A stretch of DNA of 64,000 nt from a virus: UHGV virus genome UHGV-0090252; one strand, 5' to 3'. This document shows, in pieces, positions 11,959 to 13,712 of this stretch; position 1 is the stretch's first letter; each line of letters begins with the position of its first letter. Position numbers and translations under genes: made by a program. The notes beneath the pieces were generated by a model. That model was given only the letters and a program-made list of their open reading frames with translations. It searched no databases and was not told the origin of the DNA.

Positions 11959-12330
11959 ATGAAAGCTAAGAGTGCAAAAGACTTTTATTGCTTCCTACAA
12001 TCCTATATCAATTCCGTGCAAAATGGTGAAAGGTACAACCTTAATGATGTTATCCCAACACCTTTGACATGGAGACTCAGCAAATGGCCTGAAGAAGATA
12101 TTACACCAACAAGCGAACAACGCACCTACAAACCTGAAATCAATATTCCAGATTCTGAGAATCTACTATATCCAATGTTCCATATTGTTGGTCTTGGAAG
12201 ATTCCTTATGGATATCCAGTATGTAATTGGTAAGGGTTATAAGGTTAAAGGTATTGTTGTTGGTGATGTATCTCCACATCACAAAGGTTATTTTAGACTA
12301 AACGCACATTTAGAGGCTAAAAAGAAATGA
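11959..12330 (+). CDS. hypothetical protein, paralog of the N-terminal domain of the downstream Ig-like protein
   Basis: 123 aa; aligns with residues 1-120 of the 12327-13712 product (shared GERYNL/GKRYDF, SKWPEEDI/SYWPEADI, MDIQYVI/MDLQYAI). Confidence 0.55.
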   Translation: MKAKSAKDFYCFLQSYINSVQNGERYNLNDVIPTPLTWRLSKWPEEDITPTSEQRTYKPEINIPDSENLLYPMFHIVGLGRFLMDIQYVIGKGYKVKGIVVGDVSPHHKGYFRLNAHLEAKKK

Positions 12331-13712
12331 TTAAAGCAAAGACTTACCCAGACTTCAAAGAGTTTGTGAAGGGCTTCATTGCAAACGTAAAAGCTGGTAA
12401 GAGATATGATTTTAGAGCATATCAAGAGGCTATTTTACCGCTTACCTATAGTTCGTATTGGCCTGAAGCTGATATTGCAGAAGTTGAGGAGTTTGACTAC
12501 AAACCAGACTACAAAGTTCCATTTAGTGATGAGTTGCTTTACAGCATTGGTGCTCAAATGAGAACTTCTGACTTCTTCATGGACTTACAATATGCAATTA
12601 TCAATGGTAAAGATGTTGATACAATTTATTGTGAATGGCTGGCAAGAGTTAAACCATTCTCAATGTTGAATGCTAAGTTGAAGGATGCTGTCAATCCACC
12701 AGCAATCACTCAGCAGCCAACCAATCAAACAGTAAATGAAGGTGACACACTTACCCTAAGTGTTATTGCAACTAATGCCACTGGATATCAATGGAAAAAG
12801 GGTGGTGAGGATATCACTAGCGCCACATCTGCAACCTACACAAAACAGTCTGTAGCACCTTCTGATGCAGGTTCATACACTTGTGTTGTATCTGGAGAGG
12901 CTGGAACAAGTGTTACCTCAGATGCGGCAACAGTTACTGTCAACGCACTGCCTGTGATTACACAGCAACCTTCTAGCCAGACCATCAATGAGGGTGGAAA
13001 CATTAACTTGGAAGTGACTGCAACAGGTGCAACAGGTTATCAGTGGAAGAAAGATGGCTCTGACATCCCTTCAGCTACAGAGGCTACCTATAGCAAGTCT
13101 GGTGCGCTGCCAGCAGATGCAGGTTCATACACTTGCGTTGTAACAGGTGCAGGTGGTTCTGTTACTTCTAGCCCTGCAACTGTCACGGTAAATGCTTTGC
13201 CAGTTATTACCAAGCAGCCAACCAATCAGGTAGTTAATGAGGGTAGCTCTTTGACACTGAGTGTTGAGGCGACAGGTGCGGAAGGTTATCAGTGGAAAAA
13301 GGACGATGTGAACATCCCTAGTGCAACTGGTGCGACTTACACGAAAGCTAACGCAGTTCCTGACGATGCTGGTTCATATACCTGTGTAGTTACTGGTGCT
13401 GGTGGTACAACAGTCACATCTAATGCTGCAACAGTTACTGTGAATGCACTTCCGGTAATCACTCAACAGCCAACCAATCAAGAAATCAATGAAGGTGAGA
13501 CCTTAACGCTGAATGTTGTAGCAACAGGTGCAACAGGTTACCAGTGGAAGAAAGGTGAGGAAGACATCCTCGATGCAACTACTGCAACTTACACCAAAGA
13601 AGGTGCAACCGCTGCTGATTCAGGAAGCTACACCTGTGTAGTTACTGGTGCAGGTGGCTCTGTAACATCTAATGCAGCAACAGTTACTGTTAACCCAGCA
13701 GGGGAGGCATAA
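12327..13712 (+). CDS. Ig-like tandem-repeat protein (four repeats of 84 aa)
   Basis: 461 aa; four copies of PVITQQPTNQ..NEG..L.L.V.ATGATGYQWKK.G.DI..AT.ATYTK....DAGSYTCVVTGAGGSVTS.AATVTVNAL. Confidence 0.7.
   Translation: MIKAKTYPDFKEFVKGFIANVKAGKRYDFRAYQEAILPLTYSSYWPEADIAEVEEFDYKPDYKVPFSDELLYSIGAQMRTSDFFMDLQYAIINGKDVDTIYCEWLARVKPFSMLNAKLKDAVNPPAITQQPTNQTVNEGDTLTLSVIATNATGYQWKKGGEDITSATSATYTKQSVAPSDAGSYTCVVSGEAGTSVTSDAATVTVNALPVITQQPSSQTINEGGNINLEVTATGATGYQWKKDGSDIPSATEATYSKSGALPADAGSYTCVVTGAGGSVTSSPATVTVNALPVITKQPTNQVVNEGSSLTLSVEATGAEGYQWKKDDVNIPSATGATYTKANAVPDDAGSYTCVVTGAGGTTVTSNAATVTVNALPVITQQPTNQEINEGETLTLNVVATGATGYQWKKGEEDILDATTATYTKEGATAADSGSYTCVVTGAGGSVTSNAATVTVNPAGEA
12699..13709 (+). 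repeat. 4 x 252-bp in-frame tandem repeat encoding the Ig-like domains
   Basis: repeat unit boundaries from the protein periodicity; strong nucleotide-level similarity between units. Confidence 0.7.

Follow-up and report, generated by a model that had tools for sequence, protein, structure and literature searches.

We analyzed a 64,000-nucleotide (nt) stretch of the virus genome UHGV-0090252 (the window) and focused on two adjacent plus-strand open reading frames (ORFs), at 11959-12330 and 12327-13712, which encode proteins of 123 and 461 amino acids (aa). The 461-aa protein is predicted to be the Ounavirinae Hex-Dec, a capsid decoration protein located at hexamer centers, and the 123-aa protein a diverged duplicate of its anchor domain. 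We consider this overall explanation very likely. The window region was 99.6% identical in DNA to Escherichia phage pinkbiff and matched 215 records, almost all of them from Felix O1-like phages of Escherichia coli, Salmonella, and Shigella; the source phage is assigned to Felixounavirus. There is little new in the main gene. Nearly everything about it was published in 2025, including the identity of the protein, where it sits on the capsid, the unusual position of its gene, and how the number of Ig-like domains varies (PMC11821841, PMC12609058), and the main finding is thus already known. The anchor-only paralogue, of which we found no mention in the literature searched, is the sole apparently undescribed element of the locus. 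The parts of the two genes are as follows.

Positions 11959-12330, plus strand: 123-aa paralogue without Ig-like domains (phrog_4463; Felix O1 ORF37; bas63_0125), with the ribosome-binding site AAGGA at 11948-11952.
Positions 12327-12698, plus strand: predicted capsid-binding domain (CapBD, the anchor) of Hex-Dec, aa 1-124, with R79 and R107.
Positions 12699-12950, plus strand: Ig-like unit 1, aa 125-208.
Positions 12951-13199, plus strand: Ig-like unit 2, aa 209-291.
Positions 13200-13451, plus strand: Ig-like unit 3, aa 292-375, absent from most three-unit relatives.
Positions 13452-13712, plus strand: Ig-like unit 4 and a short C-terminal tail, aa 376-461, followed by the stop codon.

Both ORFs lie where an initial annotation, made from the DNA letters alone, had placed them, and the architecture it described was largely borne out. 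An N-terminal domain of 124 aa is followed by four Ig-like units of 83-86 aa, which start at aa 125, 209, 292, and 376. Pfam searches returned Ig_3 (expect [E] value 1.4e-44), Ig_2 (E 2e-35), and I-set on four stretches each, with E values ranging from 1e-44 to 1e-35. BLASTP confirmed that the upstream ORF is paralogous to just the N-terminal domain (identity of 36% over 121 aa, Hex-Dec residues 2-119; E 5e-18). The location beside the endolysin gene and distant from the packaging genes was also correct: the lysin gene starts at 13712, and the terminase and portal genes lie approximately 9 kb away on the other strand. In contrast, the statement that the repeats are highly similar at the DNA level was exaggerated. 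The units are 65-71% identical to each other in DNA and 69-73% in protein, with longest common exact runs of 15-20 nt; find_repeats gave 63-70% identity. The 252-nt period of the Ig array was absent from the Tandem Repeats Finder output, showing that the similarity claim was too strong.

In phmmer searches against the PDB, two entries matched the 461-aa protein over nearly its full length: chain S of 9NCF from phage Bas63 ("Immunoglobulin-like domain protein"; E 1.7e-269, residues 1-459) and chain S of 9C2D/9C3A, which is gp20 of Shigella phage Sf14 ("Tail protein"; E 6.5e-173). The protein of Bas63 (Escherichia phage JohannRWettstein) is an orthologue of 460 aa, also with four Ig units. Its gene has the same neighbors (bas63_0125 upstream and the endolysin downstream) and the same place outside the structural module. 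The window anchor is approximately 95% identical to residues 1-124 of the Bas63 chain, and unit 3 is of a different allele or origin. Sf14, a Mooglevirus, has a homologous anchor (approximately 87% identical) with R79 and R107 and a 122-aa paralogue upstream, and differs in its three Ig units and total length of 372 aa. Both arginines occur at matching positions in the window protein. Thus, four features of the Hex-Dec family were found together in the window protein: anchor homology, a string of one to four Ig-like domains, R79/R107, and adjacency to the endolysin outside the structural module.

Orthologues of this protein are present in virions, in agreement with the annotation as an Ig-like virion decoration protein. 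Felix O1 Gp36, the product of ORF36, which adjoins the lysin gene ORF35, was detected by mass spectrometry (MS) in purified virions with 44% coverage. Sf14 gp20 was likewise detected in virions by MS (PMC11821841), and the anchors are modeled in 9NCF and 9C2D. In both phages, the anchor sits as a monomer at the centers of capsid-protein hexamers. Only the pentamer-adjacent hexamers of the T=9 shell are occupied, the other hexamers are without density, and the flexible Ig-like domains were not resolved in either capsid reconstruction (PMC12609058, PMC11821841). In Sf14, salt bridges from Arg79 and Arg107 to Asp221 of the major capsid protein hold the anchor (PMC11821841). Both capsid papers call the protein Hoc-like; it was named Hex-Dec in Bas63 and gp20 in Sf14 (PMC12609058, PMC11821841).

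By homology, the N-terminal 124 residues of the window protein would fold into a small domain, seated as a monomer at the depressed center of a hexamer of the major capsid protein and held there partly by Arg79/Arg107 salt bridges to capsid Asp residues. As in the solved relatives, only those hexamers of the T=9 capsid that adjoin pentamers, 60 in all, would be occupied. The four Ig-like domains would project outward as a flexible, acidic fiber, which may let particles aggregate or adhere weakly to glycans or surfaces. A role in adhesion or aggregation is probable by analogy with T4 Hoc, for which it was proposed, as it was by the Bas63 authors (PMC12609058). Two points weigh against this picture: capsid position and occupancy are transferred from orthologues whose anchors are approximately 95% and 87% identical, and binding of glycans or mucus by an Ounavirinae Hex-Dec is extrapolated from T4 Hoc. 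A monomeric surface anchor that tolerates one to four display domains makes the use of Hex-Dec as a display scaffold plausible.

The label "tail protein," given to phrog_3995 and used likewise in many GenBank records, raises the alternative that the 461-aa protein belongs to the tail; the overlap of its gene with the endolysin start would also fit a lysis or cell wall-binding accessory of the adjacent enzyme. However, the models obtained by cryo-electron microscopy (cryo-EM) put the N-terminal domain of the orthologue in capsid hexamers, and the Bas63 authors, who located the gene outside the structural module, at a distance of more than 10 kb, regard the "tail protein" annotation as wrong in most genomes (PMC12609058). 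The PHROG matches to major tail proteins (phrog_158/853) were confined to the Ig region, and no tail core domain was found in the protein. The timing of expression in Felix O1 also separates the gene from the lysin gene: reverse transcription-PCR signals peaked at 25 min for lysin ORF35 and for ORF38 and at 60 min for ORF36 and ORF37, as for the portal and tail genes. We consider a tail or lysis role extremely unlikely. In practice, this means that a common database annotation is wrong.

Hex-Dec resembles T4 Hoc in being a nonessential hexamer-center monomer with a string of Ig-like domains of variable number, for which adhesion or aggregation was proposed (PMC11821841, PMC12609058). In contrast to the N-terminal anchor of Hex-Dec, that of Hoc is C-terminal, and the Bas63 authors described the Hex-Dec anchor fold as topologically distinct from Hoc (PMC12609058). 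Among the 60 PDB sequence matches listed for the 461-aa protein there was no T4 Hoc entry, and the "Hoc-like" PHROG matches covered the Ig region only (residues ~290-459). We conclude that the window Hex-Dec works like T4 Hoc and is not a member of the Hoc family. To our knowledge, Hoc has no anchor-only paralogue. A similar layout is found in T5 pb10 (PDB 5LXK), which binds the capsid through an N-terminal domain and has a C-terminal Ig-like domain matching unit 3 (E 2.7e-12). It differs from Hex-Dec in having one Ig domain, and the PDB sequence match lies in the Ig region alone, not in the anchor.

A change in the copy number of the repeats, which the initial annotation had expected from recombination, was evident among close relatives, which have one to four units. 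In 24 IMG/VR loci, Hex-Dec lengths of 210, 294, 377, and 461 aa correspond to one, two, three, and four units, respectively. When each unit of the relatives was assigned to the closest window unit (R1 to R4), four-unit proteins had the composition R1-R2-R3-R4, three-unit proteins were mostly R1-R2-R4, two-unit proteins mostly R1-R4, and the single unit was R4-like. The end units are retained across these classes, indicating that whole units were lost or gained in register. We also sampled 60 GenBank records, evenly spread over the 215 matches, and read the unit class from the distance between the paralogue start and the lysin end. The distances clustered at approximately 2218, 1966, 1716, and 1466 nt, corresponding to four, three, two, and one units, with counts of roughly 5, 21, 22, and 10. 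Pinkbiff, which belongs to species Alf5, has four units and Alf5 itself three; thus, unit number varies within a species.

The Bas63 paper reported one to four Ig domains among Felixounavirus species and presented Bas63 as the sole four-unit member among 18 ICTV species (PMC12609058). Four-unit versions are not unique to Bas63, since they are also encoded by the window phage, pinkbiff, PK6, KEP3, and others. The third units of Bas63 and the window have only 65% identity, whereas identity reaches 93-98% in the anchor and in units 1, 2, and 4, showing that at least two versions of the third unit exist among four-unit Hex-Dec proteins. The two third units support the recombination idea, although the units have only short exact matches in common. 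Unit number would change via in-register loss or gain of whole units of 249-252 nt. Neither of the two outcomes that the initial annotation had named beforehand as refuting it, absence from virions and an invariant repeat number, occurred, and its interpretation as a decoration protein with recombining repeats is supported.

Two further observations concern the Ig units (12699-13709). They match GhpA, a 5898-aa grappling-hook protein of the bacterium Aureispira (PDB 9FLP), with an E value of 1.4e-88 over 13 stretches, and their G+C content is 47%, compared with approximately 36% in the genes on either side. This may reflect a bacterial origin of the units or simply composition bias.

The 123-aa paralogue matches phrog_4463 (unknown function) over its full length and chain S of 9NCF with an E value of 1.2e-11 (phmmer). 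A Pfam search with it returned no family; the protein ends after the anchor, without Ig domains. In a Foldseek search of the PDB with an AlphaFold2 model of the paralogue (predicted local distance difference test score 65; predicted template modeling [TM] score 0.68), the sole matches were 9ncf_S and 9c2d_S, with a TM score of 0.64. That the model is of moderate confidence counts against this structural assignment.

The paralogue is widely conserved. It is intact, over at least 80% of its length, in 233 of the 253 matching GenBank records, which include Felixounavirus, Mooglevirus, and related Citrobacter and Shigella phages, and its length is 122-124 aa in all 26 IMG/VR loci. A divergent 87-kb metagenomic phage (L040) has the same three genes (paralogue, Hex-Dec, and endolysin), with a paralogue 45% identical to that of the window. 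Pairwise Nei-Gojobori comparison gave a median ratio of nonsynonymous to synonymous substitution rates (dN/dS) of 0.12 at a dS of approximately 0.7; the corresponding ratios were 0.044 for the Hex-Dec anchor and 0.075 for the lysin. The paralogue is under purifying selection.

These data bear on the idea that the upstream ORF has no protein function and is either a decaying duplicate or only a leader through which ribosomes reach the Hex-Dec start. A natural deletion is in line with it. One deletion allele, in which the paralogue is reduced to a 192-nt remnant, is common to 19 GenBank Felixounavirus records; the phages carrying it are REP5-12, Tf, FGS030, fBSPA4, fKMPT1, mio, EcF-vB, Z31, CECAV_041, P54, and SP116. 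The start codon is lost, the frame is shifted, and approximately 225 nt are deleted internally. What is left retains the final ~75 nt, and with them the GAGG ribosome-binding site of Hex-Dec; in REP11 (L028) the remnant lies at 2306-2497, equivalent to window positions 11912-12326. A decaying ORF is, however, at odds with the dN/dS ratio, the constant length, the 233 GenBank matches, and the 45% identity in the divergent lineage, and a leader needs no conserved amino-acid sequence. We regard an ORF without protein function as very unlikely.

Hex-Dec is intact in every inspected locus of the deletion clade except that of Z31. Therefore, the paralogue is dispensable and is not an obligate partner of Hex-Dec, and a role as its obligate chaperone is unlikely. 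In Shigella phage Z31 (L029, 2498-3070), the paralogue is also gone, and Hex-Dec is annotated as two coding sequences of 134 and 55 aa, a split that is either genuine or due to an error in sequencing. The natural deletion mutants (mio, the REP phages, and SP116) are ready comparators for studies of the paralogue. Some records are problematic: P54 (PV390658, vB_EcoM_P54; L035) is filed as Tequatrovirus though its locus is Felixounavirus-like, and the record "Staphylococcus phage SA1" contains Felix O1-like genes.

The paralogue differs from the Hex-Dec anchor at residues involved in capsid contact. In all paralogues, R79 is replaced by Gly, R107 corresponds to His, Gln, or Arg, and the motif K-P-F/Y reads K-G-Y or Y-G-Y. 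The paralogue is basic (pI 9.1, net charge +4), and the Hex-Dec anchor is acidic (pI 5.0, net charge -3). A search of 1.84 billion representative proteins with a profile of the Hex-Dec anchor yielded 13 clusters only. The K-P-F/Y motif is common to the distant anchors, and against all five distant single-copy anchors the Hex-Dec anchor outscored the paralogue. By these comparisons, the paralogue is the derived, more diverged copy, and it is best described as a copy of just the anchor domain that arose long ago by tandem duplication. Not every distant anchor that presumably binds the capsid carries R79, which weighs against reading much into its absence; thus, the loss of R79 in the paralogue is no proof of lost capsid binding.

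In the distant members, the fusion partners of the anchor are Big_2-like domains, Ig-like domains, or a Lys/Ser-rich tail; the anchor is a module open to various display domains. Tandem paralogues were also sought in the distant anchor-bearing phages, and none was found: there was one anchor gene per locus in L042-L047, and the ORF 5' of P0099 was unrelated. One of these loci, L045 (metagenomic contig SRR33913825_5192), retains the synteny of the window, with the gene order DUF2828, DUF5681, a 185-aa ORF, the anchor gene, and lysozyme; its single anchor protein (5001-5462; 153 aa) has a Lys/Ser-rich tail and no Ig domain.

Bas63 (bas63_0125) and Sf14 (122 aa; MF327003, 10503-10868) both encode the paralogue, and it was not reported in the structure paper of either phage (PMC12609058, PMC11821841). 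Gp37, the product of Felix O1 ORF37, is absent from the virion MS table of that phage, which includes proteins of 9.7-13.7 kDa, and the virion proteins that the VpaE1 paper names in its text do not include the counterpart there, ORF40c. We tentatively suggest, as our best guess among several possibilities, that the paralogue is a nonvirion accessory protein, produced late, that would associate transiently with hexamers of the capsid protein while heads assemble, for instance on procapsids that have not yet expanded, and would not serve as a permanent decoration. Several points weigh against this reading. Its nondetection in virions counts only as negative evidence, the Felix O1 table was restricted to proteins of at least 25% coverage, and the Sf14 protein table lists modeled proteins only. 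In addition, a monomer on an icosahedral 3-fold or 5-fold axis is blurred by symmetry averaging.

The same stringent MS thresholds and symmetry blurring leave room for a low-copy virion component, an Ig-less plug on the 20 three-fold hexamers or the 11 pentons, which are without Hex-Dec, that was missed so far. The retained anchor fold and the late expression alongside Hex-Dec would suit such a plug. The paralogue is basic and the capsomer center of Sf14 is lined with Asp residues, and its changed contacts could suit the differently oriented Asp221 of the 3-fold hexamers (PMC11821841). Both cryo-EM papers, however, report the other hexamers as being without density (PMC12609058, PMC11821841). 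The protein is also missing from the Felix O1 table and from the virion proteins that the VpaE1 text names, despite seven well-sized tryptic peptides and the detection of smaller proteins, and viable phages without it exist. We judge a virion plug to be quite unlikely.

It is also conceivable that the paralogue targets something other than the capsid, such as a host protein, or acts as a decoy for a defense system that senses capsid or decoration proteins, its adjacency to Hex-Dec being a matter of history. A faster-evolving, derived copy with reversed charge and lost contact residues would be expected in this case, and the paralogue is dispensable in laboratory isolates, as accessory and counter-defense genes often are. 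Against this, the overlap with the Hex-Dec start persists even at 45% identity, the late timing is shared, and no similarity to an anti-defense or host-directed family was detected (no Pfam family; PHROG "unknown function"). Such a noncapsid target is unlikely.

Returning to the accessory protein that binds hexamers transiently, a more specific version is doubtful though worth stating: the paralogue may be a previously unrecognised head-assembly accessory, derived from the decoration anchor, that influences where or when Hex-Dec loads. It would bind hexamer centers on unexpanded procapsids or on the hexamers that are finally left bare. If this is true, capsid decoration in Ounavirinae has a regulator or placeholder built in. 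We know of no comparable regulator or placeholder for Hoc, pb10, or other decoration proteins. Conserved, expressed late, and copied from a capsid anchor, yet not reported in the particle, the paralogue offers a handle on site-specific decoration of T=9 capsids. It is worth a short experimental follow-up and is no major surprise.

The stop codon of the paralogue overlaps the Hex-Dec start codon (ATGA), which suggests that the two genes are translationally coupled. The Hex-Dec stop and the endolysin start overlap by 1 nt (TAATG). The order paralogue-Hex-Dec-endolysin was invariant in 24 of 26 related IMG/VR loci, namely, the 24 that reach the downstream genes. A slippery-site-like T-AAA-AAG sequence is located one codon before the paralogue stop (12314-12330), and a -1 shift there would enter the Hex-Dec frame. 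A programmed frameshift fusing the two proteins was rejected: the motif is missing from Mooglevirus-type, L040-type, and some Felixounavirus junctions, and no Gp37 peptides were reported in Felix O1 virions. The neighboring features are as follows.

Positions 11321-11911, plus strand: 196-aa ORF (phrog_4034, function unknown), the conserved upstream neighbor of the decoration-gene cluster.
Positions 11921-11934, plus strand: GC-rich hairpin GGGGC-TGAT-GCCCC followed by TTTAA, terminator-like, after the 196-aa ORF and just 5' of the paralogue.
Positions 13712-14176, plus strand: endolysin, 154 aa, Phage_lysozyme (E 2.5e-40).
Positions 14186-14213, plus strand: intrinsic-terminator-like hairpin AGGCTCC-TTCG-GGAGCCT with a T run, at the end of the three-gene block.

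The hairpin at 11921-11934 has an RNA folding energy of -14.4 kcal/mol (z -1.8). It is kept in REP11 and Z31, and a "terminator" feature is annotated at the homologous position in the AYO145A record; it fails the T-run rule of the intrinsic-terminator scan. A scan for sigma-70-like promoters gave matches below the shuffled expectation. A shared late-promoter motif 5' of the paralogue, CTATTTATAAGGA, was tried and rejected: with up to 2 mismatches, it had 6 matches compared with 2.5 expected, none of them in promoter positions.

The cluster is part of a plus-strand gene group from approximately 10.9 to 18.4 kb that holds the paralogue, Hex-Dec, and the endolysin. The minus strand of the window encodes the portal protein (249-1724) and the large terminase (1732-3348), and the major capsid protein gene is outside the window. 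An array of 23 tRNA genes (3781-8669, minus strand) is located between the terminase gene and the decoration and lysin cluster, so that Hex-Dec lies beyond the array from the packaging genes. An Rfam search of 3000-14500 returned nothing except tRNAs. In the tRNA-array stretch, an insertion or deletion of roughly 280 nt separates the window from pinkbiff.

Two more minus-strand genes follow the tRNAs. The first (8835-10250; phrog_850, labeled "RNA-binding protein") is directly beside the array and encodes a product of 471 aa; its L045 counterpart has DUF2828, and its homologue in the phage mio record is named vWFA protein. The second (10330-10701) has homologues bearing DUF5681.

The 196-aa ORF has counterparts in Felix O1 (ORF38), in the divergent metagenomic phage L040, and in L045 (the 185-aa ORF). 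Near its C terminus (residues 165-187), a short motif, KSEFIDYVNGFGFKFDESMNLKK, resembles residues 20-42 of T4 Inh, and in T4, inh is directly upstream of hoc. The 185-aa counterpart in L045 carries a precomputed "faint" Phage_Inh_N flag. Homology of the 196-aa ORF to T4 Inh was not supported: hmmscan returned nothing, and hhalign gave a probability of 6% over the 23-residue motif.

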